A program made the translations under genes and the position numbers. From Dictyostelium discoideum (Eukaryota), in the NCBI GenBank assembly GCA_000004695.1, contig CM000151.3:256001-320000 (forward strand): a stretch of DNA of 64,000 nt. Reading direction: 5' to 3'. The notes under the pieces are model-generated. The model saw only the letters and a program-made list of their open reading frames with translations, was not told where the DNA came from and made no database searches. The number at the start of each line of letters is the position of its first letter. Positions within the stretch are counted from its first letter, which is position 1. Positions 4,280 to 55,472 of this stretch are shown here, in pieces.

Positions 4280-6361
4280 ATGCCAAAAAATAAAAAAATA
4301 AAAACAGATAAAAATAATAAAATATTTCAAGATGTTATTGAATTTGAAATTTTAAGATCAATAATCAATTATTTATTAATCAGCAAAAAAAAAAAAAAAA
4401 ATAATAATTATAATACTAGTAGTCAATATAAAATTAATAAATTTTATTTAAATAGAAATGAAATATTAAATTATATATTAGTTTCAAAAAAGTGGTATAA
4501 TTTTATATCATTAACAATATCAAATAATATTATTAATAATAAATTATTTGAATATTGGTTAAAAATTAATTATTACAATAAATCATTTATTGAAAATTAT
4601 AATAATCAAAATAAATATGATAAATATAATTTATTTTTCAATAACATAGAAGATTGCAAAAATAAAATTAGTTTTAATAAAGAGTTTTCAATTATAAAAA
4701 TCAAAGAATCAATAATCAATGATTATTTTAAATTCAATTTATTTTCAAATCATATTACAATTGATGATTTTAAAGAAATTAAAAACAAATTTGAAAATAA
4801 TCAATTACTTTATAATAGAATTGTAGTTAATCTTGAAACTGATTATGGTAGCGATGATGATGATATTTTATTTACAATACATGAATATATATCAAATGAA
4901 AATTGGGAAATCATATCAAATTTATTTAAAATAATAGAATTAAATTTTCATTTTTGGTTAGGTGAAGGTTATCAACCAAAATCTGAGGAGGAGGAGGAGG
5001 AGGAAGAGGAGGAGGAGGAGGAAGATCATCATGATACTGATGAATGTTGTAGTCCAAAATCTGAGGAAGACGATCATGATGAACATTGTAGTCCAAAATC
5101 CAAAGAGGATGATGATCATGACGAAGGTTGTCACCCAAAATCTGAAGAGGAGGAGGAGGAGGAGGAGGATGATCTTGATGATGAAGGTAATAAGAAATGT
5201 ACTGAATTATATTTAAATAGTTTAACAGTTGTTGGGTATGATCAAGATGTAGTTGAAGATGAAGAAACAGTAAAGATATTCAAAATTTTCAAAGGTAAAA
5301 ATTTATTTTATGATGGATCTGGTGATTCAATTGATACGTATACACATGTCAATTATTCAGCATTATTTGATCCAGATAATTCAGGTCAACAAGTTGAATC
5401 AATTAATGTACAAATTGAAACTATTAATGAAGAATTCGTTGAAGCACGTCATTTAATCAAAGTTAATCAATTTGAAAATTTACATTCAATTACAATACCA
5501 ATTAGCTCTTTTCAAATATTATCAAGTTTAGCGAAAGAAATGGGATTTACTAGTTTCTATTATAATAGTAAATCAGAATTTGGTAATTCAAAAAATATGA
5601 AATCAGAATTAAATCAAATGATCAATTCATTCGTTACATGTAAATCTTTAAAGAATTTAAAAATAACATCGGTAAATTTAACAGATTATCATATCAACTA
5701 TGAAGGTTATTATGATGGAAATGGAGATCTTGAAATTTTTGCTAATAAAATAAATGAAACTATAGAATCATATTCAAATTCATTCCAACCATTATTTTCA
5801 GAATTAAATACATCAATTGAAAGAATTGAATTAGATTGTATGCGTTTATTAAATATCAATACATTTTCAAATTTATTAAATAATAAATCAATTAAATATT
5901 TATATTTGTATGGTGATAGTGATTTCATTGTTTACTCTTCAAAATCAAGTGGTTATGGTGGTGGTAGTGAATTACATGAAGAATCTATTTCAATTAATCA
6001 ATTTTTATTTGAAAATATATTTACATCACCATTAACATCAATTAGACATTATAAAATTTGTTTCAAATTATCAAATCAATTAAGATTAATATTTAATTTA
6101 ATTTTAAATAATATTTTCAAATTACAATTATATTCATTAATATTTGAATTCGATGAAAACAAATTAGTTGGCGAATTTGTTAAAGAATTTAAAAATTTAA
6201 TAAATAGTATTCCAACTCAAATACAACAAAAATCAAATAACATAAATTTAAAAGAAATTAAAATTAAAATTGAAGATGATGAATATATTCCTGAATTAAA
6301 TAATATTAATAATCCGTATTTCACAACAATAATAAAGAAAATAGAAAAAAAATATGATTAA
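4280..6361 (+). CDS. Tandem-family paralogue (~693 aa from MPKNKKIKTDKNNKIF). Carries an expanded acidic cassette with (GAG)n poly-E and His/Cys-containing repeats HDTDECCSPKSEEDDHDEHCSPKSKEDDDHDEGCHPKSEEEE.
   Basis: ORF 4178..6361, but the upstream part (MREKKKVKLSFFFF...) is poly-T low complexity. The paralogue-conserved start is ATG 4280-4282, preceded by the ...aaacaaataata motif. Confidence 0.8.
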   Translation: MPKNKKIKTDKNNKIFQDVIEFEILRSIINYLLISKKKKKNNNYNTSSQYKINKFYLNRNEILNYILVSKKWYNFISLTISNNIINNKLFEYWLKINYYNKSFIENYNNQNKYDKYNLFFNNIEDCKNKISFNKEFSIIKIKESIINDYFKFNLFSNHITIDDFKEIKNKFENNQLLYNRIVVNLETDYGSDDDDILFTIHEYISNENWEIISNLFKIIELNFHFWLGEGYQPKSEEEEEEEEEEEEEDHHDTDECCSPKSEEDDHDEHCSPKSKEDDDHDEGCHPKSEEEEEEEEDDLDDEGNKKCTELYLNSLTVVGYDQDVVEDEETVKIFKIFKGKNLFYDGSGDSIDTYTHVNYSALFDPDNSGQQVESINVQIETINEEFVEARHLIKVNQFENLHSITIPISSFQILSSLAKEMGFTSFYYNSKSEFGNSKNMKSELNQMINSFVTCKSLKNLKITSVNLTDYHINYEGYYDGNGDLEIFANKINETIESYSNSFQPLFSELNTSIERIELDCMRLLNINTFSNLLNNKSIKYLYLYGDSDFIVYSSKSSGYGGGSELHEESISINQFLFENIFTSPLTSIRHYKICFKLSNQLRLIFNLILNNIFKLQLYSLIFEFDENKLVGEFVKEFKNLINSIPTQIQQKSNNINLKEIKIKIEDDEYIPELNNINNPYFTTIIKKIEKKYD

Positions 6362-6845: not shown

Positions 6846-8050
6846 AAAATAATAATAATATCAACAAGTAAAAAAATAAAAACAGATAATAAAATATTTC
6901 AAGATCTGATTGATTTTGAAATTTTAAGATCCATAACCAATTATTTATTAACTAGCAAAAAAAAAATTAATAATAATAATAATATTAATAATATTAATAA
7001 TTTAAATAATAATAATATTATTAATCAATAAAATTAATAAATTTTATTTAAATAGAAATGAAATATTAAATTATATATTAGTTTCAAAAAAGTTGTATAA
7101 TTTTATATCATTAACAATATCAAATAATATTATTAATAATAAATCATTTGAACATTGGTTAAAAACTAATTATAATAATAATAAATCATTTATTGAAAAT
7201 TATAAAAATCAAAATCAATATGATAAAAATAAAATATTTTATAGCAAAGAAGATTATAATCAATATAAAATTAGTTTTAATAAAGAGTTTTCAACTATAA
7301 AAATCAAAGAATCAATAATCAATGATTATTTTAAATTCAATTTATTTTTAGATAAGCTTACAATTGGTGATATTATAGATATTAAAAATAAATTTGAAAA
7401 TAATCAATTGGTTTATAATAGAATTGTAGTTTATATTAAAACTGATGATGATTGGTTTCCATAATGTGATAATTTATTAAAATATTTAAAATACACGAAT
7501 ATGTATCAAATGGAAATTCAGAAATCATATGAAATTTATTTCAAATATTAGAATTAAATTATGGTTTTAGGTTGCGTAATGGCTATGATCCAAATCTGAA
7601 AGGGTATATTATGATGATAAAGGTAATAAGAAATCAACTGCTGAGTTATATTTTAATAATTTATCAATTGCTGGTAATAGATTTGCAGATGAAGATAACA
7701 AAACAGTCATGGTATTCAAAATATTCAAAGGTAAAAAATTATTTTATAATAAAACTTGTAGATATAGGTCAACACATGTCAATTGTTCATCATTATTTGG
7801 TCCAGATATTTCAGGTCAACAAGTTAAATCAATTGATTTATAAATTCGGTTTGGGAATTTGTTTATGAATTTAAAAATTTAATAAATAATATTTCAATTC
7901 AACAAAAACAACAACAAGAATCAAAACATAAATTTAAAAGAAATTAAAATTAAAATTGTAGTTGATAAATATGAAAAATTTCAAGAACTAAATTATTTTA
8001 AAAATCCATATTTCGCAATAGTAATAAAGAAATTACCAAAATGGTGGTAA
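6846..8050 (+). pseudogene. Decayed copy of the tandem family: family promoter motif present but ATG mutated (ATA), multiple stops and frameshifts, internal deletions
   Basis: tcactctttataatttaaacaaaaaataataataatATCAACAAGT at ~6836. ORF 7093..7464 encodes YNFISLTISNNIINNKSFEHWLK...NRIVVYIKT. Downstream fragments GNKKSTAELYFNNLSIAG, SGQQVKSID and NPYFAIVIKKLPKWW-stop lie in shifted frames. Confidence 0.75.
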
Positions 8051-8271: not shown

Positions 8272-9460
8272 TCAATTAGGTCCATTTGAACAAAGTCTCA
8301 TTGTTTCTTTAATAAAGGCAACGATATAAGGGGCATTTTGTTTATGATTGAAATTGACATATTCATCATCTTTGACAGCTTTTTTAATTTCTAGATATGC
8401 AATCTCTTGAGGTTCTGGACGATTACATAATTGTAAAATTACCCAATTCATTGTGATTGTAACTGTACCAATGGCTGGTCCAAAAATATCAAAACAAATT
8501 TGATTGATTTTCATTGTATCTTCTTTAGTGATTTCATTTAATCCATATTCAATTAACAAATCATCCATTAAATCTCTTGGTTTACTTGGATCAATTGACT
8601 TAAAATGATTTTCATTTTGACTACTAATTATTTGTCTAACGATATCGCAACCTTTTAATCTTCTAGTAAAGAACCAATCATAAAGTGGTGAGAAAATTTC
8701 AAAACAATCAAATGCAGTTAGTTTTGAAAGATTACCAAAAACATGTTCAACTGCATTACCAATAGTTCTTGACAAGCCACTTTCAACTGATAAATCTTGA
8801 TTAAACATATATTTGAATAACATTGAACAAGCATATCCTTGAATATGTCCTTTTGGATAAAACTTAAAATAATTATTTAATAAATTAATATTAATAATTT
8901 TAATTGTAATTATTATTTCTTTAAAAAAAAACCTATAATTTCATTATTATTCGAAATTTTTTCAAGTGAATCAATAAATTCAATTGCTTTTTCTTCCATT
9001 AATTTTTTAGATGTATGAACTCTTAATTATTAAGAAACACTTGATTTTGCTCTTTTCCATTCGTCATCAGATGAGCTCATTACACCTAATCCATTACTTG
9101 AAGCATATCTCCAACCTGGAACTAAAAGTGATGGTTTGTAAAGGAAATTTTCATCTTTTTGAAAATACTTTACATCATAATTTGAGACAAATAAAAATAA
9201 TCTTTCTCCAATCCATGCTCTTACAATTAATTCATGTTCTTGAATTTTGAATAATTCCCAAAATCTAATTTGAACAACATTTCCAAGAATAGGAAATGCA
9301 ATTGGTCCACTTGGAGATTTTGTATGAATTTTCTTATTTTTTTTAACCTTTTTTTTTTTTGTAAAGAATTAATTAATTAATTTTAATTATTTCTAAAATA
9401 TATAAAATTAAATACATACAAAATCTTTTACCAAGAAAAGTATAATTAGAATAATAAAAC
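8272..9460 (-). pseudogene. Cytochrome P450 remnant. N-terminal anchor and Pro-rich hinge (PSGPIAFPILGN), WKRAK motif, I-helix-like GPAIGTVTIT and K-helix ETMRL are present. In-frame TAATAA (plus 9036-9041) sits after ...KSSVS. No PERF or heme-binding Cys region is present before the gene ends at 8272.
   Basis: Minus-strand translation of 9340..9040 gives KNKKIHTKSPSGPIAFPILGNVVQIRFWELFKIQEHELIVRAWIGERLFLFVSNYDVKYFQKDENFLYKPSLLVPGWRYASSNGLGVMSSSDDEWKRAKSSVS. ORF 8272..8823 gives ...DIFGPAIGTVTITMNWVILQLCNRPEPQE...VAFIKETMRLCSNGPN-stop. Introns with GT..AG at 8863-8932. Only AT-rich non-coding DNA follows until the family pseudogene at 8050. Confidence 0.6.
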
Positions 9461-10224: not shown

Positions 10225-13200
10225 ATGATTGAAGGAAATTTTGAAAAAAACAATGATAACCAAGTTGCAATAATTGGTCTTGGGCTAAGATTACCAGGTA
10301 ACTCGGGATCTCCTTTAGAGTTTTGGAAAAACTTGCTTGGTGGTTTTGATGGAATTGTTGATTCTAATGAAAGGTAAAAAAAAAAAAAAAAATTTAAAAA
10401 ATAAATAAATAAAAAATTAGAATTATAAAAAAAAAAATAAAAATAAAAAAAAAAATAAAAATAAAAATAAAAAAAAGTGATGGCGACTCACCTCTAACAC
10501 ACCATATTTTTTTTTATTTTAATTTTTTTCTTTTTTTTCATTTTCATCACCGTTGTCTTCATTTTTTTTTTTTTTTTTTAAATTATTATTTTTATTTATT
10601 TAGATGGAGCGACACATTCCATAGTATGGGAGAAATCTCAAATAAGAATGCAGGATTAATTGACTTGGAAGAGAATTGGCATTCTTTTGAGCCATTGTTT
10701 TTTGGGATCAATCCAACCGATGCTAAACAAATTGATCCACAAATTAAATTAATGTTAAAGTTAACATGGGAAGCATTTGAAGATGCATCAATTGATCCTT
10801 TAAAACTCAGAGGAACAAATACTTCTGTTTTTGTTGGTGCCGCAAATACTGATTATTCTTTTATTAATTTCGAATAAAATGAAGCGCCAATCAATGTTTT
10901 TAATGGTACTCTCAGCGCATTTGCAAATAGAATATCATATTGTTTTGATTTACGTGGTACTTCATTAACAATTGACACTGCATGTTCATCATCATTAAAT
11001 GCAGTTCATTTAGGATATGAATCAATTGTTAATGGTAAATCAAATTACTCTGTAGTAGCTGGTTGTAATATATTATTAAGTAATTATTATTATAATATTA
11101 GTAGCACACACATATATATAAAATAGTTTTCATATTTCTAATATTTTATTTTTATTATTATTATTATTCTAAAAAAAGATCCATATATTACTAGATCATT
11201 TCATTCAATTAATATTACAGGTAAATCTGGTAGATGTAATTCATTTGATGAATCTGCTGATGGTTTTGTACGTTCAGAAGGTGTTGTTGTATTAATTTTA
11301 AAAAGATTATCACTTGCAATTCAAGATAACGATCAAATTTATTGTGTAATGAAAGGAAGTAGTTCAAATGTAGATGGTACTTTTAAGAAAACAAACTTTT
11401 TTGCACCTTCAAAAAGTGCACAATCAACTAATATCAAAAATGCATTTTTATCATCTAATGGTGCAGTGAAATATCAAGATATTGATTTCTTTGAATTACA
11501 TAGTACAGGTACACAAGTAGGTGATCCAATCGAAGTTGAAGCTGTTGCTGATATTTTTAAAAATGTTAAACAAGAACCATTATTAATTGGATCAGTTAAA
11601 TCAAATATTGGTCATCTTGAACCTGCATCAGGTGTAGCATCATTAGCAAAAGTTTGTTTAATGTTTAAACATCGTCAATTTGTAAAGAATATCCATTTCA
11701 ATAACCCAAATCCAAATATTAAATTCAAAGAATGGAATGTTAAAGTATGCACAGAAACAACAGCATTCCCAGATAGACAAGTATCAATGGCAATCAATAG
11801 TTTTGGTATAACTGGTTCAAATGCATGTGTTTTATTGTCTGAATATATTAAACCTTCAGAATTAAAAAATCAAACATCCATGAAATTAAATGAAAAATCA
11901 AAATTATTAATACCAATATCAACCAACTCAAAGAAGTCACTCGAACAATTCAAATCAAAACTACTTGAAGAAATTGATACATACTCTGAAAGCTTAACTT
12001 TTGAAGAGTTTGCAATGTTCCAAGTTTATTCAAAAACAACCAAATTATCACAAAGATCAGTTTTAATTGGTAATGATTGGAATGATTTAAAAATTAATAT
12101 AAATGAAATTATTTCAACAAAAAATAATAAATCTGGTAATATTATCAAATCAAATGATATTAATCCACCATTAGTATTTTCATTTTGTGGTCAAGGTCCT
12201 CAATATTCAAAAATGGGTTTAGATTTATATGAAAATGAACCAATATTTAAACAATATATGGATTTATTAGATTCAATACTATTTAAATATTATGGATATT
12301 CAATCATTCAAAAACTAAGATCAATTAATGATGATCCAATTCTAATTAATGAACCAATATTAGCTCAACCATCTATATTTATGATTCAAATATCATTATA
12401 TAAATTATATTTGCATTGGGGAATCACACCATCAATAATAGTTGGCCATAGTTTAGGAGAAGTAGCCAGTGCATTTTGTTCAGGTATGATTGATTTAGAA
12501 ACAGCATGCTTCGTGATATATAAAAGAGCAATCATTCAAAATAAAACCAATGGATCTGGAAGACTTTTAGCAATTGGTTTAAATCTTGAAGAATTCTATA
12601 ATCAATTTTCAAAGGAATATCCAGAAATTGAAATTTCATGTTTTAACTCACCATCATCAATCGTTGTATGTGGTAATGAACATGATATATTAAATATTTC
12701 AAAATCATTAAAAGAGAAACAAATATTCAACTCTTTATTAGGTACACCATCAGCATTTCATTCATCAAAACAAGATATAATCAAAGATGAAATTATAGAA
12801 TCAACCAATCATATCCGATCAAGACCACCTTCTATAACAACATTTTCAACAGTCACATCAAATAAATTCGATAAAAATACACCTTATAATTCAAATTATA
12901 TATTTGACAATTTAAGAAAGCCAGTATTATTTCAACAAACCATTGAAAACATATTCAAACATATTGAATCAAATGATTTAGGTAATTCAGTAATATTTTT
13001 AGAATTGTCACCTCATCCAACTTTAAACCATTATGTTAAAGAAATGATTCCAAAGAATTCAAATTACTTTTTAAACAAAGATTCAATAAGTGTATTATCA
13101 TCAATAAATAAGAAAAAAGAAGATATCAACGAAATTCAATCAACAATTTCACAACTTTATTGTTTTGGTTACAATGTCGATTTTAGTGCCCAATTTAAAT

Positions 13201-16200
13201 CGGAAATAACATCAAATTCATTCAAGAAATGCTCATACATAATACCACATTATCAATGGGATGAATCATTATTTTGGAAAGAAGGTATTTCATCAATAAA
13301 TAATAGAAAGAATGGAGTATCAATAAATCAACTTGGTAATAAAAATGAATCATCACCACATATATCATATACATCATATATCGATATTAAAGAAGAACCA
13401 TTTAGATTCTTAAAAGATCATCAATTTCGTGGTAAATCAATTTTCCCAGGAGTTGGTTATTTGGATATTATTTTAAAACTTTTCCCAAATCAAGATTTAA
13501 CCATACCACTTTTAGAATTTAAATCACAATTTATATTATCTGAAGGTGTAAAAAAAACTCTTACAACCAATCTCTACAAAAGTGCAAAGAATGAATATAG
13601 AGCAACATTTAATTTTAAAGATCAAACAAGTGGTAAGTGGGTTCAATCTGCAAATAGTAGAATTTTAATGAAAAGTTTAGATGTAACAGTTAAAAAAGTT
13701 GATATTCAATCAATACGTGATCAATGTAATTGGTCAACTTTGAAAAGAGATCAATTATATAACTCAATTAAAAACTATTCAAACATTTCAATATTAGAAT
13801 CATTTCAAAGAATTGAAGAAGCTTCATATGGTGATAATAGATGCCTGTGTAAAATTTCATTGGATCCAACTTCAAGCTATGATAATGAATCATTTTTAAA
13901 TATTTGCATTATTGATACATGTATACATCCATGTATTTTCTTTGATAACCCAGCTTCGTCTGTTTTTGAAAGAATTGAACATTTAAAAATTTATTCTTCA
14001 AGTGTTCCATTAACTGCAGAAGATAGAGTGAAGCAACAATACGTTTACTGTTATGTTGAACTTATTAAACAATTTAGTGATTTTATGTATTTAAAAACAA
14101 CTTGTTTCTTAAAAGATGGTACTGTTCTATTACATTCTCCATTGGTAACAATTGCATCTACACTATCAACAAAAAATGAAATTGATATTGAATGTCCAAA
14201 CAATCAATTATTTTCACAATGTCTTCAACCAAAAGATTCAATTTTACAATCACCATTAATATTGAAAGAATATTTTAATCAACAACTTCAACTTCAACAA
14301 TCAAATATCATTTCAATATCTACTCTATCATCATATCTTTTTTCCACATTAAAGAAAATATTAAATAACCTCACCATTGATGAATTTCAAAATGATTCAC
14401 TTGAACAGTTGATTGAAAAATATTCATATATCTTGGAAGAAGTTCAAGAAGTTGGTACTATCAGATCCAATTTAATCCTCTTAACAATCAACTTTTTATT
14501 AACACATCACAAACATATTGATCAAAACCAAGTTTCAAACTTTCTCTTGAATAACATTCCAAACGAATTATTAGTTGTTGATAATATTGTTTCAAATAAA
14601 GGTATTTCACATATTGGTATTTATCAACATCAATTAATTTTAGATATAATTTCAAAATCAATTATTCCAATCGTAAATGAAAAAATAGTTTTTAGAATTT
14701 TAGAAATTGGATGTGGTGTTGGTGAATTAACTAAACTAATCAATGATAAATTAGAATCAATTTTAAATGATAATCCATCATATAACATTGATATAGAATT
14801 TGTATTTTCAGATTATACCGATTCAAAAGTATTATTAATTAAAGAAAGATTGTTCAGTTCAAAAAAGAGTTGTTTCTTTAAAATTATTGATTTAAACAAA
14901 CAATTACAAGAACAATCATTTTCACCATCTTATTATGATTTAATTATTCTATCAAATACAACAAATCAAATTAAAGATATCAACACATCAATTTCATTTG
15001 TAAATGAAATTTTAACTCCAAACGGTCATTTATTAATTTTAGATACAAATTTCATTCAAACATCAATAGATGAAGATTATTATTTAGAAAACTACAAACA
15101 ATGGTTATCATTTAATTATTTAAATTCTGGTAGTGGTGCAATGAAACTAAATCAATGGAATCAATTATTAATAAATGATTTGAAATTTAATAATTTCATA
15201 TGTTCAACAGGTGAAATTGAACCATATTTGATTCAAGTTCAAAAATCAAATTTATCAAATTCAATTAATTCAGTTAGTAAAGAGCATACATCAGAATATG
15301 ATCAAATTATAATTTTTGGTACTTGTGATGAAATTAATATTGGATCTTCTTTCTATGGCTTGGTTCCAATAGCAATAAATTCAATTGATAAGTTTAAAGA
15401 ACATGTCAAATTACAACAATTAACTGATAAATCATTAATATTATTTATTGAATCATTAAATCTATTAACAGTTGATAATTTTAATCAAGTCTCAATGAAC
15501 TATATAGAAATCAATCAACATTTATTAAAAAATGAAATTTCAGGTTGTAAACATATTTTAATTTCAAGAAATGTAAACTTTGAAACTTCAAACTTATTTG
15601 GATCATCATTAATTGGTTCATTTAGATACTTTTGTGAATTCAATCAATTAAATATATATTCATTTGAATTTGAAGGTAATAATATCCTTAGTGGTGATAA
15701 ATTATTTAATATTATTCAAGAATTATCAAATTCAAGCAAACATTCACAAAATGAATTTTCAATCAGAAGTGATGGTAAAATTTATTATGAAAGAATTAAA
15801 TTAGAATCAAATTTAAAATTAAAATATAAATCAAAATCATATATTGAAAATAAAAATGAATTAGTTTCAAGATTAAAACCAGATTTAACATTTGCATTAG
15901 AAGCGGTATTACCATTGAATCCAAATTTTGTTGAAGTTAAAGTAATGGCAAGTGGTGTTAATTTTAAAGATTTCTTAGTTTATCGTCAATTAATTAATAT
16001 GGCAAATTCAAATGAAAATGGTGATCCTTCAAAACCACAATTTGGATATGAACTAAGTGGAATCGTTACCAAAGTCGGTAAGAATGTGACCAAATTCAAA
16101 GTTGGTGATCATGTAATGGGAGGTGCTTTTCATACATTTTCATCAAGTGTTCATGTAGATCAAGAAAGAATCGAATTAAAACCATCAAACATTTCTTGGT

Positions 16201-17016
16201 TTGAAGCATCACACTCTTTAGTTTATTTAACTTCATATTGTAGTTTATTCGAACTTGGTAGATTGGATTTATATGGTTCAAGTGAAACAGTTTTAATTCA
16301 TTCAGGAAGTGGTGGTATTGGTTTATCTTGTATCGATTTATTACAAGTATATGGATTTAAAGGATATTTATTTGTAACTGTAGGCTCTGAAGAAAAGAAA
16401 CAATTTTTAAAAGATCGTTATGGTGATTTCATCACAGAGATTTATTCAACTAAAAATACAGACTATGAATATTTAATTAAAGAGAAATTAATTGAATTAA
16501 AAGCACCATCTCAAAAATATGGTAGTTTTTCAATGATTTGTGTGGATTTAATTATAAATACTTTATCAGCAGATTATATGTCCTGAATTTTCAAATAATC
16601 ACAACTTTATCCATCGTTCGTCAAATTATAAAATTCATCAAGATACTTTAGGTAAAACAATATTAATAACAGGTCAAGCAGGTCTTTCAGATACAATCAT
16701 AAAATGGATAAGAGAAAAAAGATCAGATTCTATTGAATCAATAATAGTATTATCAAAATCACCAATTAAATTTGAATTAGAAAGAGCAATTGGTAGAATA
16801 AGATCAACAAATTTGAAAATCTATTTTAAACAAGTTGATATTTCAGATGAAAAACTTTTATTAAAATCAATTAATCAATTATTTGAAGAAAATAAAAATA
16901 TTAAACCAATTGAATCAATATTCCATAATGCATTTTCACCAGCAGAATGTGAACCATTAGAAATTGATATGAATCATTTAATTATTGGTTTGATTAAAAA
17001 AAAAAAAAATGAATGA
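10225..17016 (+). pseudogene. Type I iterative polyketide synthase (Dictyostelium pks family), domain order KS-AT-DH-cMT-ER-KR(partial). Three lesions: in-frame TAA at 10875-10877 inside KS; frame change near 16580-16590 between ER and KR; KR truncated at 17016 with no ACP, immediately upstream of the transposon at 17116.
   Basis: Exon 1 10225..10373 ([30 protein letters not shown]...). Intron 10374..10603 (GTAAAA..TTTAG). Exon 2 10604..11079 with KS active site TIDTACSSSL. Intron 11080..11178 (GTAATT..AAAG). Exon 3 11179..16586. AT domain GHSLGE at ~12444. DH motif HQFRGKSIFPGVGYLD at ~13417. Methyltransferase LEIGCGVGELT at ~14700. ER KVMASGVNFKD at ~15940. KR Rossmann motif TILITGQAGLSD at ~16660, in the +1 frame. 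...DYSFINFE-TAA-NEAPINVFNGTLSAFANRISYCFDLRG is continuous KS sequence across the stop. Confidence 0.6.
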
Positions 17017-23447: not shown

Positions 23448-25436
23448 ATGTCAACAAATAAAAAATTTAAAAAATATAATAATAAAATATTTCAAGATGT
23501 TATTGATTTTGAAATTTTAAGATCTATAATCAATTATTTATTAACCAGCAACACAAATAAAAAAAATAATAATAATAATTACAACACTAGTAATCAATAT
23601 AAAATTAATAAATTTTATTTAAATGGAAATGAAATATTAAATTATACATTAGTTTCAAAAAAGTGGTATAATTTTATATCATTAACAATATCAAATAATA
23701 TTATTAATAATAAATTATTTGAACATTGGTTAAAAATTAATTATAATAATAATAATAATTATAATATTATTAATAATAAATCATTTGATAATTGGTTAAA
23801 AATTTATAATAATAATAATAATAAATCATTTATTGAAAACTATAATAATCGAAATCAATATGATAAAAATAATTTATTTTTAAAAAGTGCTAAACAAAAT
23901 AAAATTAGCCAATTTAAAATTAGTTTCAATAAAGAGTTTTCAATTATAAAAATCAAAGAATCAATAATTAATGATTATTTTAAATTCAATTTATTTTTAG
24001 ATTATATTACAATTGATGATTTTAAAGAAATTAAAAAGAAATTTGAAAATAATCAATTACTTTATAATAGAATTGTAATTGATATTAATATTGGAAATGG
24101 TTATGATGATTATAGTTCAAACCAAAGTGATATTATATTTAAAATACATGAATATATATCAAATGAAAATTTAGAGACTATATCAAATTTATTTAAAATA
24201 TTAGAATTAAATTATGTTTATTTGGAAATTGGGGATTATATTCCAAAATCCCCTGAAAAGGGCAAAAGTAATAATAAGAAATGTACCGAAATGTATTTTA
24301 AAAGTTTATCAGTTGATGGTTTATATGAGAACGAAGAAACAGTAAAGATATTCAAAATTTTCAAAGGTAAAAATGTAATATTTCATGGTCCAACACATGC
24401 CGACTCACCATTATTTGACCCAGATAATTCAGGTCAACAAGTTGAATCATTTAAAGTACAAACTGATTTATTCGGATCTTTTGTTGAAGCACGTCATCTA
24501 ATCAAAAGTAATCAATTTGAAAATTTACATTCAATTTCAATAAAAATTAATTCATTTCAAATATTATCAAATATATCTGAAGAAATGGGATCTTATAGAT
24601 TCTATAATAATCATAATTATAAAAATGATCCACCAGATTCGAAAAATATGAAATCAGAATTAAATCAAATGATTAACTCATTCATTACAAGTAAATCTTT
24701 AAAGAATTTAAAAATAACAGCCAATAATACTACACACTATTCAATTGAATATGATGCTTGCTATATTGGAGGTGATCATGAAACTTTTGCAAATAAAATA
24801 AATGAAAATATAGAATCATATTCAAATTCATTTAAACCATTATTTTCAGAATTAAATACATCAATTGAAAGAATTGAATTAAATTGTTGTGGTTTATTAA
24901 ATATCAATACATTTTCAAATTTATTAAATAATAAATCAATTAAATATCTATATTTATACGGTGATAGTGATTTCATTGTTTACTCATCAAAACAAAATGG
25001 TGGTAATAGTGGTGGTGGTGATGGTGTATTACATAAAGAATCTATTTCAATTAATCAGTATTTATTTGATAATATATTTACATCACCATTAACATCAATT
25101 AGACATTATAGAATTAAATTCAAAGAATCAAATCAATTAAAATTAATATTTAATTTAATATTTAATAATATTTTTAAATTACAATTGTATTCATTAATAT
25201 TTAAAATTTATAAAAACGAATTAGTTGGTGAATTTGTTAAAGAATTTAAAAATTTAATAAATAATATTTCAACACAACAAGATCAACAACAAAAATTAAA
25301 TAACATATATTTAAAAGAAATTAAAATAAAAATTGAAGATGATAAATATATTCAAGAATTAAATAATATTAAAAATCCATATTTCACAACAGTAATAAAG
25401 AAATTACCAAAAAGGTTGTGTACACTTAAAAGATAA
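23448..25436 (+). CDS. Tandem-family paralogue (~663 aa from MSTNKKFKKYNNKIF)
   Basis: ORF 23349..25436. The paralogue-conserved ATG is at 23448, preceded by tcagctcactcttacaaataatt. All conserved blocks are present. Gly-rich cassette NGGNSGGGDGVLHKE. Confidence 0.8.
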   Translation: MSTNKKFKKYNNKIFQDVIDFEILRSIINYLLTSNTNKKNNNNNYNTSNQYKINKFYLNGNEILNYTLVSKKWYNFISLTISNNIINNKLFEHWLKINYNNNNNYNIINNKSFDNWLKIYNNNNNKSFIENYNNRNQYDKNNLFLKSAKQNKISQFKISFNKEFSIIKIKESIINDYFKFNLFLDYITIDDFKEIKKKFENNQLLYNRIVIDINIGNGYDDYSSNQSDIIFKIHEYISNENLETISNLFKILELNYVYLEIGDYIPKSPEKGKSNNKKCTEMYFKSLSVDGLYENEETVKIFKIFKGKNVIFHGPTHADSPLFDPDNSGQQVESFKVQTDLFGSFVEARHLIKSNQFENLHSISIKINSFQILSNISEEMGSYRFYNNHNYKNDPPDSKNMKSELNQMINSFITSKSLKNLKITANNTTHYSIEYDACYIGGDHETFANKINENIESYSNSFKPLFSELNTSIERIELNCCGLLNINTFSNLLNNKSIKYLYLYGDSDFIVYSSKQNGGNSGGGDGVLHKESISINQYLFDNIFTSPLTSIRHYRIKFKESNQLKLIFNLIFNNIFKLQLYSLIFKIYKNELVGEFVKEFKNLINNISTQQDQQQKLNNIYLKEIKIKIEDDKYIQELNNIKNPYFTTVIKKLPKRLCTLKR

Positions 25437-25454: not shown

Positions 25455-25930
25455 AACTGGTGATTATGGTAGTGGTGGAAGTGGTAGTGGTAATAGTGGT
25501 GGTGATGGTGTATTACATAAAGAACCTATTTCAATTAATCAATATTTATTTGAAAATATATTTACATCTCAATAAACATCAATTAGACATTATAAAATTA
25601 AATTCAAAAATTCAAAACAATTAAAATTAATATTTAATTTAATATTAAATAATATTTTTAAATTACAATTATATTCATTAATATTTGAATTCTATGAAAA
25701 AGAATTAATTGGCGAATTTGATAAAGAATTTAAAAATTTAATAAATAATATTTCAACACAACAACAACAAAAATCAAATAACATAAATCTAAAAGAAATT
25801 AAAATTAAAATTAAAATTAAAATTAGACATAATGAATTAATTCAAAAATTAAATAATATTAATAATCCATATTTCAAAACAGTGATAAAGAAAATAGCTT
25901 TTAATGATGGTCGTGCACCGGAGAAAAAAA
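25455..25930 (+). pseudogene. 3'-terminal fragment duplicate of the family gene (segmental partial duplication) with an in-frame stop
   Basis: Encodes GDYGSGGSGSGNSGGDGVLHKEPISINQYLFENIFTSQ-stop-TSIRHYKIKFKNSKQLKLIFNLILNNIFKLQLYSLIFEF...NPYFKTVIKKIA. No 5' part is present. Confidence 0.7.
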
Positions 25931-44050: not shown

Positions 44051-44126
<76 letters not shown>

Positions 44127-45916
44127 ATTGAAATATTATTTATTAAATTTTTAAATTCTTTAACAAAATCACAAACTAATTCGTTTTTATTGAATTCAAA
44201 TATTAATGAATATAATTGTAATTTAAAAATATTATTTAATATTAAATTAAATATGAATTTTAATTGATTTAATTCATTCAATTTAATTTTATAATGTCTA
44301 ATTGATGTTAATGGTGATGAAAATATATTATCAAATAAATATTGATTAATTGAAATAGGTTCTTGATGTAATTCATTACCGCTATAACTTGGTTTTGAAG
44401 AGTAAACAATGAAATCACTACCATATAAATATAAATATTTAATTGATTTATTATTTAATAAATTTGAAAATGTATTGATATTTAATAAACCACAACAATC
44501 AAATTCAATTCTTTCAATTGATGTATTTAATTCTGAAAATAATGGTTTAAATGAATTTGAAAATGATTCTATAGTTTCGTTTATTTTATTAGCAAAAATT
44601 TCATGATCAGCTCCCTTACAATCACGATAATATAAACCTTCATAATCAATTGGAGAATATTTTGAACTTACTGATGAGATATTTAAATTCTTTAAAGATT
44701 TACTTGTAATAAATGAATTGATCATTTGATTTAATTCTGTATTAATATTTTCAGAGTTACCCGATTCTGATTTACTATTATAAAATCTAATAAATCCCAT
44801 ATCCTCAGATAAGTTTGATAATATTTGAAAAGAGCTAATTGGTATTGTAATTGAATGTAAATTTTCAAATTGATTAACTTTGGCTAAATGGAGAGGTTCA
44901 ACAAATTCATCATTATCAGGTTCAATTTGTACTTTAATTGATTCAACTTGTTGACCTGAATTATCTGGATCAAATAATGCTGAATAATTGACATGTGTAG
45001 GCATATCACTACAAGTATCAGATCCATCATAAAATATATTTCTACCTTTGAAAATTTTGAATATCTTTACTGTTTCTTCATCATTACCTACTTCTCCATC
45101 AAAACCTGCAATTGATAAATTATTTAAATATAATTCAGTACATTTCTTACCACCTTTATCAGTATCATGATCACCTTCCTCCTCTTCAGAGTTTGGGCTA
45201 TAACCATTATCCAAACAAAAATCAATATTTAATTCTAATATTTTAAATAATTTTGATATGACTTCTGAATTTTCATTTGATACATATTCATGTATTCTAA
45301 ATAAAGTTGTTTTATTATTATTACTATCATAATCAGCATCAACATTAACTACAATTCTATTATAAAGTAATTGATTATTTTCAAATTTATTTTTAATTTC
45401 TTTAAAATCATCAATTGTAATCTTATATAAAAATAAATTGATTTTAAAATAATCATTGATTATTGATTCTTTGATTTTTATAATTGAAAACTCTTTATTA
45501 AAACTAATTTTATTTTGTTGATAATTATAATCTTCATCTTTAAAAATTAAATTATTTTTATCATATTGATTTTGATTATTATAATTTTCAATAAATGATT
45601 TATTTTTATTATTATAATTAATTTTTAACCAATGTTCAAATAATTTATTATCAATAATATTATTTGATATTGTTAATGATATAAAATTATACCACTTTTT
45701 TGAAACTAATATATAATTTAATATTTCATTTCTATAAAAATAAAATTTATTAATTTTATATATATTAATAGTATTATTATTTAAATTATTATTTTTATTT
45801 TTATTTTTTTTGCTAGTTAATAAATAGTTGATTATAGATTTTAAAATTTCAAAATCAATAATATCTTGAAATATTTTATTGTTATTATTTGTTTTTATTT
45901 TTTTACTTGTTGACAT
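43937..45916 (-). CDS. Tandem-family paralogue (659 aa), the only inverted member. (CAA)n-encoded polyQ of ~37 residues.
   Basis: Intact ORF on the minus strand. Family upstream motif in reverse at 45917-45955 (...cattattatttgttaacatgatatgttaagagtgagtttg). Confidence 0.85.
44051..44126 (-). repeat. (CAA)n trinucleotide microsatellite encoding polyQ (shown as (TTG)n on the plus strand)
   Basis: Direct read. The homologous polyQ in other paralogues ranges from 3 to 12 Q. Confidence 0.9.
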
Positions 45917-53489: not shown

Positions 53490-55472
53490 ATGTCAACAAA
53501 AAAAAAAATTAAAACAGATAATAATAATAAAATATTTCAAGATTTTATTGATTTTGAAATTTTAAGATCTTTAATCAATTATTTATTAATCAACAAAACA
53601 AATAATAATAATAATAATAATAATAAATATAAAATTAGTAAATTTTATTTACATAGAAATGAAATATTGAATTATATATTAGTTTCAAAAAAGTGGTATA
53701 ATTTTATATCATTAACAATATCAAATAATATTATTAATAATAAATCATTTGAACATTGGTTAAAAATTAATAATAATAATAATAATAAATCATTTACTAA
53801 AAATTATAATAATCAAAATCGATATGATAAAAATAATTTAATTTTTAATAACAAATATAGTAAAAATAAAATTGGTTTTAATAAAGAATTTTCAATTATA
53901 AAAATCAAAGAATCAATAATCAAAGATTATTTTAAATTCAATTTATTTTTAAGTAATATTACAATTGATGATTTTAAAGAAATTAAAAATAAATTTGAAA
54001 ATAATCAATTAGTTTATAATAGAATTGTTGTTGATATTAAAACTGGCTATTATGGTGAAGGGAATCAAGATGAAATTTTATTTAAAATACATGAATATGT
54101 ATCAAATGAAAATTCAGAAATCATATCAAATTTATTTAAAATATTAGAATTAAATCATGATTTTATGATAATCGATGACTTTCATCCAAAATCTAAAGAA
54201 GAGGATGAAGAGGATGAGGAGGATGATGAAAATGATAAAGGTAGTAAGAAATGTACTGAAATATATTTAAATAATTTATTGGTTTCCGGTTATGATCTAA
54301 CTATGGATGAGGATGAAGATAGAGAATCATTAAAGATATTCAAAATATTTAAAAGTAAAAATATATTTTATGATGGGTCTGGTATTGCTAGTGATATTCC
54401 AACACATGTCAATTATTCAGCATTGTTTGATCCTGATAATTCAGGTCAACAAGTTGAATCGATTAAAGTAAAAAATGAACTTGAAGATCCTGATTTTGTA
54501 GAACCACTCCATTTAATCAAAGTTAATCAATTTAAAAATTTACATTCAATTACAATACCAATTAATTCATTTCAAATATTATCAAACTTATCCGAAGAAA
54601 TGGGATATTTTAGTATCGATTGTTTTAAATCTGGTTTTGGTCTTTCAGATAATATGAAATCAGAATTAAATCAAATGATCAATTCATTCATTACAAGTAA
54701 ATCTTTAAAAAATTTAAAAATAACATCTATTAGTACAAAAGAAGATCCAATTGATTATGATGCTTATTATGATGAAGGTGATCTTCAAACTTTTATGAAT
54801 CAAATAAATGAACCTAAAGAATCATTTTCAAATTGTTTCAAACCATTATTTTCAGAATTAAATACATCAATTGAAAGAATTGAATTTGATTGTTGCGGTT
54901 TATTAAATATCAATACATTTTCAAATTTATTAAATAATAAATCAATTAAATATTTATATTTATATGATAGTGATTTCTTTTTTTCTTCATTAAAAACAAG
55001 TGATGGTGGTAGTGATGATTGTGGTATTGATGATGATGGTGGTAGTGATGATTGTGGTATTGATGATGATGGTGGTAGTGATGATTGTGATGCATATCAA
55101 AAAATTATTTCCATTAATCAATATCTATTTGAAAATATATTTTCATCACCATTAACATCAATTAGACATTACAGAATTAAATTCAAAGAATTAGATGAAT
55201 TAAAATTCATATTTAATTTAATATTAAATAATATTTTTAAATTACAATTATATTCATTAATATTTGAATTCAATGAAAACGAATTAGTTTATGAATTTGT
55301 TAAAGAATTTAAAAATTTAATAAATAATATTTCAATACAAGAACAACAACAACAACAACAAAAATCAAACAACATAAATTTAAAAGAAATTAAAATTATA
55401 ATAAATGATGACTGTTTAGAAGAATTAAATAATCCATATTTCAAAACAACAATAAAGAATAGCCCATATTAA
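53490..55472 (+). CDS. Tandem-family paralogue (660 aa). Contains a 3 x 27-bp tandem repeat encoding DGGSDDCGIDD at ~55010-55090. Its upstream region lacks the CACTCTTTATAA motif.
   Basis: Intact ORF with all conserved blocks. Confidence 0.85.
   Translation: MSTKKKIKTDNNNKIFQDFIDFEILRSLINYLLINKTNNNNNNNNKYKISKFYLHRNEILNYILVSKKWYNFISLTISNNIINNKSFEHWLKINNNNNNKSFTKNYNNQNRYDKNNLIFNNKYSKNKIGFNKEFSIIKIKESIIKDYFKFNLFLSNITIDDFKEIKNKFENNQLVYNRIVVDIKTGYYGEGNQDEILFKIHEYVSNENSEIISNLFKILELNHDFMIIDDFHPKSKEEDEEDEEDDENDKGSKKCTEIYLNNLLVSGYDLTMDEDEDRESLKIFKIFKSKNIFYDGSGIASDIPTHVNYSALFDPDNSGQQVESIKVKNELEDPDFVEPLHLIKVNQFKNLHSITIPINSFQILSNLSEEMGYFSIDCFKSGFGLSDNMKSELNQMINSFITSKSLKNLKITSISTKEDPIDYDAYYDEGDLQTFMNQINEPKESFSNCFKPLFSELNTSIERIEFDCCGLLNINTFSNLLNNKSIKYLYLYDSDFFFSSLKTSDGGSDDCGIDDDGGSDDCGIDDDGGSDDCDAYQKIISINQYLFENIFSSPLTSIRHYRIKFKELDELKFIFNLILNNIFKLQLYSLIFEFNENELVYEFVKEFKNLINNISIQEQQQQQQKSNNINLKEIKIIINDDCLEELNNPYFKTTIKNSPY

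Follow-up and report, generated by a model that had tools for sequence, protein, structure and literature searches.

In the 64,000-nucleotide stretch of Dictyostelium discoideum DNA that we analysed (the window), one member of a lineage-restricted, tandemly amplified gene family carries a long acidic segment dotted with His and Cys: is this segment a new functional element, or did the family already possess its parts? The gene, c4280 (4280..6361, forward strand), is an intact ORF of 693 codons and belongs to a Dictyostelium-specific family with a predicted LRR fold. Its expanded slot (4976..5203, forward strand) encodes 76 residues with a net charge of -35, 6 His and 5 Cys, and the peptide PKSEEEEEEEEEEEEEDHHDTDECCSPKSEEDDHDEHCSPKSKEDDDHDEGCHPKSEEEEEEEEDDLDDEGNKKCT is the in-frame product of these positions within the ORF 4280-6361. 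A preliminary description had confined this cassette to the 4280-6361 copy and assigned a short linker to the same slot of the other copies. Both statements hold: only one of the 11 full-length paralogues of the window possesses the cassette, whose peptide (e.g. SEEDDHDEHCSPK) was found in this slot alone, and the slot of the ten others measures 8-29 residues against 76 in c4280.

The same description counted three repeats of ~13 residues containing His and Cys. The repeats are real, but read in register they are four in-frame modules, which start at 4976, 5054, 5093 and 5135 and measure 78, 39, 42 and 69 bp, every length being divisible by 3. All four open with CCA AAA TCY, i.e. P-K-S, and their 3' ends are TGT-A[CG]T or TGT-CAC. 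On the forward strand, module 1 (4976..5053) reads PKS-E13-DHHDTDE-CC-S and retains GAT CAT GAT ACT GAT (DHDTD); module 2 (5054..5092) reads PKS-EE-DDHDE-H-C-S; module 3 (5093..5134) reads PKS-KE-DDDHDE-G-C-H; and module 4 (5135..5203) reads PKS-E8-DDLDDE-GNKK-C-T, with an ancestral GNKKCT tail and a Leu codon, CTT, that differs by a single base from the CAT (His) of the other modules. The founder module would be PKSEEDDHDEGCT, to which module 2 is identical at 35 of 39 positions. The module heads are not due to chance: CCAAAATCY occurs 9 times in the 64 kb for 2.05 expected, a number reached in none of 100 shuffles, and four of these sites are the heads of the cassette modules while four others are slot heads in other paralogues. 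The modules are ~60-75% alike. As their cores are of low complexity (GAT/CAT/GAA) and only 58-67% alike when aligned in pairs, homology is less secure for the cores than for the P-K-S heads.

TRF detects on the cassette a (GAG)12.7 run at 4985-5022, a 42-bp period repeated 2.7 times at 5038-5145 (score 119) and a (GAG)7.7 run at 5147-5169. The cassette is thus a coding micro/minisatellite of the D. discoideum type, head-to-tail, with periods of 3, 42 and 3, inside an ORF. Other natures of the segment were considered and ruled out. An intron or non-coding insert does not fit its GC content (43%, against 19% in the remaining CDS of c4280), its reading frame and its recognisable coding modules; D. 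discoideum introns have an AT content even higher than that of this CDS. As for an antisense gene, the ORFs that cross the cassette in other frames or in antisense are short and of low complexity, being by-products of its repeats. A structured RNA is dismissed as well, the lone Rfam match, sR53, scoring 19.8 bits for a gathering score of 49. A foreign or domain-like insertion is excluded by the lack of any significant Pfam match in the cassette and of any similar protein segment in all that was searched.

The slot itself is common to the family, and its length is highly variable. Among 64 members the median is 18 residues (IQR 15-21), and the longest slots are those of c4280, with 76, then two of 54 and 30. 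The cassette has no counterpart among the 64 aligned members and 84 homologues, and none of the 5.8 billion proteins searched bears it or a similar segment; relatives therefore do not share it at the corresponding position. The slot of 54 residues belongs to P0006, a member from D. cf. discoideum, and is made of poly-E/D: this expansion is independent of that of c4280.

By contrast with the cassette as a whole, its constituents are widespread. The linker module of the family can be written PKS-(E)n-DHD-E-G-(NKK)-C-T. Within the window, the ancestral module is best modelled, in single copy, by the slot of c43940 (45137..45202, reverse strand), YSPNSEEEEGDHDTDKGGKKCT, whose core matches module 4 at 31 of 39 aligned columns. 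Ancestral motifs are also seen as SEEEEGDHDTDKGGKKCT in c43940 and as GHDDKGNKKC in c41663, and the slot of the other-strain member P0005 is DGHHDTDDKGNKKC, those of P0076 and P0067 being alike. Other paralogues and other strains also show P-x-S-E-E..., DHD/DHHDTD and KKC. Across the slots of the 63 other members, 23 contain His, 37 contain K-(K/E)-C, and 22 contain P-x-S followed by three residues (D/E/K, then D/E, D/E). The suggestion that the expansion created metal-binding or phosphorylatable features is not supported in that form, since P-x-S-E-E, DHD/DHHDTD and KKC already stand in the single-copy linkers of other paralogues and strains. Features already present in the loop have been multiplied (CK2-type S-x-x-E/D, acidic charge, scattered His/Cys), and no new domain has appeared.

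The codon usage of the Glu runs points to a second process. The preliminary description placed pure (GAG)n on either side of the repeats; in fact the runs lie within modules 1 and 4, and the first is interrupted by GAA. Run 1 (4985..5023, forward strand), a microsatellite, has 13 codons, 11 GAG and 2 GAA, one of the latter internal and the other the last codon (TRF matches 94%); run 2 (5144..5167, forward strand) opens with one GAA, after which come 7 perfect GAG codons. In c4280, GAG accounts for 20 of 28 Glu codons in the slot versus 1 of 49 in the remainder of the gene. Such a homopolymer built mostly from one codon bears the signature of slippage. The bias is nevertheless older than the cassette: in the ten other paralogues GAG makes up 19 of 37 Glu codons in the slot versus 24 of 429 outside (Fisher p = 2e-12), its share outside the slot being ~6-9% in the genes of the family. 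This enrichment of a rare codon in the slot of the other paralogues indicates that the slippage seed predates the expansion in c4280. Slippage seems to be still under way in the pure GAG tracts alone; the modules, only about 60-75% alike, are too divergent for their duplication to be recent.

From these data it is quite likely that two ordinary processes of repeat mutation enlarged, in frame and in this lineage specifically, the acidic inter-strand loop that the family already had, and so gave rise to the cassette. A native linker close to CCA AAA TCT GAR GAR GAT GAT CAT GAT GAA GGT (AAT AAG AAA) TGT ACT, translated P-K-S-E-E-D-D-H-D-E-G-(N-K-K)-C-T, would have been duplicated in tandem, by unequal exchange or replication slippage judging from the anatomy of the modules. 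One copy would then have lost the 9-bp NKK segment, and the resulting 39-bp version would have been duplicated again, leaving three modules devoid of NKK followed by the original one that bears it. This order—duplication, loss of NKK, re-duplication—is a reconstruction by parsimony. The codon statistics show that slippage stretched the short GAG run, found in the slot of most paralogues, until it counted 13 Glu codons in module 1 and 8 in module 4. The end product would be a disordered surface loop of 76 residues, charged -35, on an LRR solenoid; a loop of that size may be tolerated because slot length varies freely across the family.

That c4280 encodes such a solenoid is a prediction. Matches to LRR folds were obtained for the predicted structure of c4280, which appears as a curved, ribonuclease-inhibitor-like solenoid of repeating strand/helix units. 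In the AlphaFold model, residues 235-307 have a pLDDT below 50 and are devoid of secondary structure, bracketed by confident strands at 219-227 and 310-319, so that the slot is predicted to form a disordered loop joining two beta-strands of the solenoid. Sequence profiles are silent on this fold: no Pfam LRR family matches c4280 at E <= 1, LRR is not among the Pfam families most often matched by the 64 members, and the family profile has zero matches among PDB sequences. F-box families are matched by a few members (PF00646 by 7 of 64, best E = 0.043; PF12937 by 3 of 64), all below the gathering score, and N-terminal helices are predicted in c4280 at 59-68, 70-81 and 87-93 with a pLDDT below 50.

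Could the multiplied features nevertheless serve the host protein? One may imagine that the expansion is adaptive, forming a multi-site phospho-acidic loop which tunes partner binding or turnover of an LRR adaptor. The cassette matches the CK2 consensus S/T-x-x-D/E at S235, S261, S274 and S288 and contains S-P at 258 and 271; conservation within the slot is highest at the acidic P-x-S head (the 22 of 63 slots mentioned above), and a PKEEEE head exists in the distant relative P0096. However, these sites are consensus matches alone, and the slots of the paralogues differ freely in length and sequence. Moreover the head occurs at most once in each of the 63 other members, which indicates that multiplicity is not a requirement of the family. 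The literature search returned no paper on the neighbouring family gene IDs. We hold an adaptive phospho-acidic loop to be unlikely.

Alternatively, the modules might constitute a functional Zn-, Ni- or Cu-binding loop, with His/Cys ligands among carboxylates, acting in metal sensing or buffering. The density of 6 His and 5 Cys in ~58 residues surrounded by Asp/Glu, and the H-D-E-x-C spacing repeated in modules 2 and 3, go in this direction. Yet these His and Cys derive from the single-copy linker, where they are variably present (in 23 and 37 of 63 members respectively, as above), and the number and spacing of ligands are not conserved between modules: HHDTDECC, HDEHC, HDEGCH and L..DDEGNKKC, the Leu of module 4 replacing the His of the others. 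The cassette is also predicted to be unstructured, by AlphaFold, which does not model metals, and it shows neither a significant Pfam match nor a similar sequence in the searches described above. A metal-binding role thus appears highly improbable, and the expansion of the native loop is most likely neutral or nearly neutral. As for the latter, the dN/dS of ~0.87 across the family (dS among paralogues ~0.18) is as compatible with diversifying selection as with relaxed constraint, which means that "neutral" is an assumption.

Is c4280 a living gene at all? No assembly searched holds a protein record for it, and a protein with its sequence or its cassette is absent from every source searched, as might be expected if it were a recently dead or never-expressed copy whose cassette reflects pseudogene decay, or if the cassette were an artefact of the reference assembly. 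The neighbourhood is moreover crowded with degenerate genes. A 693-codon intact ORF is however improbable without selection: in neutral simulations only 2% of the runs kept the ORF open once substitutions had reached 2% per site, and none did at 5%; the paralogues are separated by a dS of ~0.18. The insertion also preserves the frame exactly, all module lengths being multiples of 3. The absence from the homology search is weak evidence, because c29190, a gene annotated elsewhere, escapes the same search too. As the c4280 ORF is clearly maintained, its loop is probably translated, and a dead copy or an artefact seems very improbable. The degenerate neighbours include a fragment of the family (6885-8041), a P450 fragment and a broken PKS. 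The 90% cluster of the nearest match of the window PKS ORF contains pks22/23 on chromosome 4 and no record of the window's own ORF; the gene model for this PKS in the ACTFIT assembly is a multi-frame patchwork.

This second assembly (GCA_054883475.1, ACTFIT) was compared over the equivalent of 9836-38841 and 43455-64000 of the window, a stretch which begins ~3.5 kb from c4280. It differs from AX4 at 107 places over 49.6 kb, all intergenic: it is of AX4 lineage and hence uninformative on natural polymorphism. The other coding repeats of the array, within the compared stretch, are identical to the reference, which, the assembly being independent, speaks against an artefact. In the searched protein sets of divergent strains no c4280 orthologue was found above 78% identity, and the best matches of the family in wild-strain assemblies are at 78-87% identity.

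The cassette is not the sole repeat of its kind in the array. In c53490 the acidic slot (54186..54263, forward strand) is PKSKEEDEEDEEDDENDKGSKKCT and contains a 9-bp repeat of 3.2 copies at 54198-54226 (forward strand), unit GAAGAGGAT. Near the C-terminus of the same copy, a repeat of the unit DGGSDDCGIDD had been announced as 3 x 27 bp at 55010-55090; the unit, of 11 residues, is as described, but the repeat spans 55001..55089 (forward strand), with a period of 33 bp and 2.7 copies that are 100% identical. It sits in a separate Gly-rich variable loop and not in the acidic slot. A paralogue-specific in-frame duplication of 66 bp x 2 (92% matches) is found in c23445 (23695..23824, forward strand), and c61314 has a paralogue-specific repeat of 24 bp x 2. 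Codon runs are added to these, among them a perfect (CAA)25 encoding poly-Gln in c43940 (44051..44126, reverse strand), an (AAT)20 and a (CAA)12. Paralogue-specific repeats in c4280, c23445, c53490 and c61314, together with codon runs, support the view of the array as a hotspot of in-frame repeat gain.

Taken alone, the cassette is of little importance; if polymorphic it would be a handy length marker of the locus. It is a clean case in which the birth of a coding repeat can be dissected—a whole linker module repeated, then a pre-existing seed of rare codons stretched by slippage—and it illustrates that seemingly new His/Cys motifs can be multiplied ancestral residues. The host family may merit more attention, with its LRR fold, its dN/dS near 0.9, its maintained ORFs and its strong divergence between strains. 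By analogy, its members might be fast-diversifying recognition adaptors of the F-box/LRR type in group-4 Dictyostelium, with a hypervariable acidic loop, the four-module His/Cys and phospho-acidic version of c4280 included, selected for partner specificity or regulation; the family would then be a counterpart of nematode and plant F-box arrays linked to immunity or conflict. We consider this quite improbable.

His/Asp/Glu-rich low-complexity segments that bind metals are found in the cytosolic loops of ZIP/CDF transporters and in Hpn-like proteins. The c4280 loop resembles them in mixing His/Cys with carboxylates and in its predicted disorder, but has neither a sequence match to them nor a conserved ligand spacing. 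The comparison with the F-box/LRR adaptors of SCF (SKP2, FBXL2, FBXL17, COI1, TIR1) concerns the host protein and not the cassette; the family stays below the Pfam threshold for both F-box and LRR, and its N-terminus is modelled at low confidence. The F-box arrays of Caenorhabditis elegans and plants (e.g. PMC8120010, PMC3719486) share with the family a large tandem array, a high dN/dS and a restriction to one lineage, a likeness in evolutionary pattern alone. The closest system is D. discoideum itself, whose coding triplet repeats and homopolymers are abundant, young, mostly non-conserved and enriched in weakly constrained genes, slippage being their accepted mechanism (Sucgang et al. 2011, PMC3188802; Scala et al. 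2012, PMC3460934; for homopolymer expansions see also Eichinger et al. 2005, as cited in PMC3460934). Like them the cassette is in frame, mostly of a single codon, young, absent in relatives and housed in a lineage-specific, weakly constrained gene: it is an ordinary case of the coding-repeat instability already documented in this species. It differs in two respects: the dominant repeats are AT-rich (Asn, Gln, Ser, Thr) whereas its poly-Glu is written in the rare GAG, and this poly-Glu is combined with a 39-42-bp minisatellite that repeats a whole linker module.

The acidic cassette occupies 4976..5203 (+) of the window, within c4280, an intact 693-codon ORF (4280..6361, +) that we name, like its paralogues, by its start. 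The peptide quoted in the preliminary description is encoded in frame as described, but the repeats in register are four and not three: modules starting at 4976 (78 bp), 5054 (39 bp), 5093 (42 bp) and 5135 (69 bp), all headed by CCA AAA TCY (P-K-S). On the cassette, Tandem Repeats Finder (TRF) reports (GAG)12.7, a 42-bp period repeated 2.7 times (score 119) and (GAG)7.7; the GAG runs, formerly placed on the flanks of the repeats, fall inside modules 1 and 4. GC reaches 43% in the cassette vs 19% in the remainder of the CDS. Across the 64 kb window CCAAAATCY has nine occurrences vs 2.05 expected, a count reached in 0 of 100 shuffles; four coincide with the module heads, and another four with the first slot codons of c23445, c32473, c41663 and c53490. 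In an 11-way alignment this slot—an acidic inter-strand loop position—holds 76 residues in c4280 vs 8–29 in the ten other copies, which upholds the claim that only the 4280 copy carries the cassette. Across 64 aligned members from several strains the median slot length is 18 (IQR 15–21), that of c4280 being the longest, followed by 54 and 30. The cassette is real and was rightly noticed, but part of its description was wrong.

The content of the modules is found in single copy elsewhere. The slot of c43940 reads CCA AAC TCT GAA GAG GAG GAA GGT GAT CAT GAT ACT GAT AAA GGT GGT AAG AAA TGT ACT (P-N-S-E-E-E-E-G-D-H-D-T-D-K-G-G-K-K-C-T), and that of c41663, compared at the codon level, ends with GGT CAT GAT GAT AAA GGT AAT AAG AAA TGT ACT. 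Module 1 retains GAT CAT (CAT) GAT ACT GAT GAA ... TGT AGT of the ancestral slot, and module 4 retains GAT GAT CTT GAT GAT GAA GGT AAT AAG AAA TGT ACT, its CTT differing from CAT by a single base. AAT AAG AAA is missing from the shorter modules 2 (39 bp) and 3 (42 bp), of which module 2 matches the inferred founder PKSEEDDHDEGCT at 35/39. In family proteins of other strains the single-copy slots carry DGHHDTDDKGNKKC (P0005), DDHHQDTDEGYNKKC (P0076) and DGHQDTDDEGGKKC (P0067). A His is present in the slot of 23 of the 63 remaining aligned members, the K-(K/E)-C tail in that of 37 and a P-x-S head followed by D/E/K, D/E, D/E in that of 22; none has more than one P-x-S head. As these elements recur in single-copy slots of other paralogues and strains, they are ancestral and were not made by the expansion, contrary to the earlier proposal that the latter creates His/Cys and phosphorylatable features: His, Cys and the S-E-E-E head are traits of one linker module, since reiterated. 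In P0103 (D. discoideum ACTFIW_001726), a distant member, the equivalent loop NDDDEGC-SGGGGGGG-SNDDFC has a poly-Gly run between two acidic-x-C elements, a pattern that may reflect a separate, partial reiteration of the linker.

The c4280 loop has 76 residues and a net charge of -35, vs ~20 residues and ~-4 in c43940, and holds six His, five Cys, four CK2-type S-x-x-D/E consensus matches and two S-P. That it might be a metal-binding loop is weakened by the ligand spacing, inconsistent between modules, and by the His/Cys being not only ancestral but variable in the family. A phospho-acidic loop would be a somewhat better candidate, since no other element of the slot is as well conserved as the P-x-S-acidic head. 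Both readings are drawn from consensus matches only.

In c4280, GAG makes 20/28 of the Glu codons of the slot vs 1/49 in the remaining gene. The ten other paralogues show the same bias (19/37 in the slot vs 24/429 outside; odds ratio 17.8, Fisher p = 2e-12), so that a short run of the rare GAG predates the divergence of c4280; long, nearly pure GAG runs are the expected product of replication slippage on such a seed. The module cores are alike at 58–67% by pairwise alignment (75% for TRF matches), a divergence at least equal to that between paralogues (dN ~0.14, dS ~0.18), and thus either the module duplications are not recent or the loop is fast-evolving. The second GAG run, which is perfect, and the 33-bp repeat of c53490, 100% identical, look recent from their sequence. 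With the slot masked, the best identities of c4280 are 77.8% to the adjacent c2017 and 76–77% to several others; this comparison gives no close relative, so that the origin of the cassette can be dated no more closely than to somewhere along a long terminal branch.

The AlphaFold model of c4280 (64-sequence alignment as input; mean pLDDT 67, pTM 0.68) shows a confident alternating strand/helix solenoid at residues ~150–690. Residues 235–307, with a pLDDT < 50 and no secondary structure, lie between strands 219–227 and 310–319; the cassette is thus modelled as an expanded loop on the surface, between two of the early strands of the solenoid. Pfam F-box matches are weak (7/64 members, best E = 0.043, below threshold), no member matches a Pfam LRR family at threshold, and the family profile found nothing among PDB sequences. 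Exhaustive search of 1.84 billion representative proteins with this profile yielded no more than 55 matches. The sources looked up for distant full-length matches—D. discoideum, D. cf. discoideum, D. citrinum, D. dimigraforme and D. firmibasis—are all group-4 Dictyostelium, and the match of a D. purpureum protein is confined to the N-terminal ~100 positions of the profile. The AX4 relative DDB_G0272490 carries the UniRef name "F-box domain-containing". The host is predicted to be an LRR-fold protein restricted to Dictyostelium, whose N-terminus may be F-box-like.

TBLASTN with the 4280 protein as query finds eleven full-length copies in the window, whose GC is ~20%. They extend over 2017–63032, starting at 2017, 4280, 23445, 26899, 29190, 32473, 38765, 41663, 43940 (minus strand), 53490 and 61314, and are 66–78% identical in protein to c4280; with two degenerate fragments (6885–8041 and 25513–25896), 11 of 13 family copies are intact. 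Seven of the 11 ORFs are 100% identical to AX4 chromosome 2 proteins (DDB_G0271406, DDB_G0271408, DDB_G0271214, DDB_G0271412, DDB_G0271418, DDB_G0271424); c41663, the eighth, matches DDB_G0271202 at 96% identity and departs from it where the annotated model lacks 24 residues. The median pairwise dN/dS is 0.87, at dS ~0.18, so that either constraint on residue identity is weak or diversifying selection acts on it. The closest matches in wild D. discoideum assemblies are 78–87% identical, and strain ACTFIW holds ~40 cluster representatives. The family behaves like a fast birth-and-death array, whose ORFs are kept nonetheless: a simulated 693-codon ORF of the same base composition stays open in 2% of runs after 2% substitutions per site, and in none after 5%. 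That the ORFs are open despite their dS would support, indirectly, c4280 as a maintained gene.

Neither c4280 nor its cassette has a protein record in the collections searched. The homology search returned none of the intact ORFs c4280, c2017, c43940 and c29190, the first three were not on record by exact look-up, and a literature search on neighbouring family genes gave no paper mentioning them. However c29190, though missed by the homology search, has an annotated, identical 640-aa product in ACTFIT (assembly GCA_054883475.1), which also gives neighbouring copies models that do not follow the ORF, so that absence from protein searches is weak evidence. Gene models for the host family are unreliable. 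The ACTFIT model of c43940 has 592 aa vs 659 for the ORF, and that of c23445 has 771 aa, spliced into the downstream fragment.

Other loci lie in the window. A polyketide synthase (PKS) ORF at 11349–16586, extending to ~18815, starts in the middle of a ketosynthase domain, has no protein record of its own and shares 94% identity with the representative of the pks22/pks23 90% cluster (chromosome 4); ACTFIT stitches its 5' and 3' parts into a 2426-aa model out of many short open segments drawn from all three frames. The ORF is probably a duplicate in decay. Between a family pseudogene fragment and the PKS sits an isolated cytochrome P450 fragment (8272–8823, minus strand; profile positions 153–337 of 462, E = 8e-22). 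A Cys-rich "Dictyostelium repeat" protein (Pfam Dicty_CTDC, E = 2e-73, 9 repeats, at 636–1863) is split over two overlapping reading frames, 636–1478 and 1300–1863, which points to a frameshift, an intron or an error in the number of repeats. Within the paralogue array ACTFIT has a 645-aa gene with weak rve and Integrase_H2C2 matches, by its sequence probably a retroelement (piece L001, 13206–16183; window ~56.66–59.64 kb), and a Dicty_CAD-family gene (L001, 6603–7025; ~50.06–50.48 kb).

By walking ACTFIT, an independent assembly, with exact-protein look-ups we recovered the equivalent of 9836–38841 and 43455–64000, beginning 3.5 kb from c4280. Its identity to AX4 is 99.4–99.7%, with 56 mismatches and 51 indels, all intergenic and most indels of 1–2 bases. 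The seven covered paralogue CDSs are identical, repeats included, which confirms that these repeats did not arise from assembly error; among them, the perfect (CAA)25 and the (AAT)20 do not differ between the two. Being near-identical, ACTFIT and AX4 are effectively one lineage, uninformative on natural variation, or their differences are mostly homopolymer sequencing noise. In the wild-strain assemblies ACTFIW, ACTFIR, ACTFIZ and ACTFIY the arrays are heavily rearranged, and no c4280 orthologue is found among the best matches.

The view of the array as a hotspot for in-frame repeat gain holds. Paralogue-specific repeats are present in c23445 (66 bp x 2), c61314 (24 bp x 2) and c53490, with 9 bp x 3.2 in the acidic slot and, at 55001–55089, 33 bp x 2.7 (an 11-aa period) instead of the 3 x 27 bp first reported. 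Codon runs are found in c43940 (perfect (CAA)25), c29190 ((AAT)20) and c2017 ((CAA)12), and the slot of P0006 (D. cf. discoideum) expanded independently to 54 residues of poly-E/D. Close cross-strain relatives differ by a few acidic residues in the slot: SEEDEEEGEDDDDDTDD in c26899 vs SEEEEEEDDDDDDDDDTDD in P0003, and SEEEDDEG in c38765 vs SEEEEEEDEG in P0044.

The best-supported scenario is that the native linker module would have been reiterated in tandem, GAG slippage then following, and that the disordered loop would tolerate these changes in length. Known mechanisms of repeat mutation explain how the cassette arose, and the family that hosts it is of greater interest. D. discoideum has a great many coding repeats, most of them young; their positions are seldom conserved, and they are over-represented in lineage-specific genes under weak constraint (PMC3188802; PMC3460934). 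The cassette follows this pattern, and is slightly unusual on two counts: unlike the typical AT-rich repeats it uses GAG, rare in these genes, and it joins a codon run with a minisatellite copying the whole linker.
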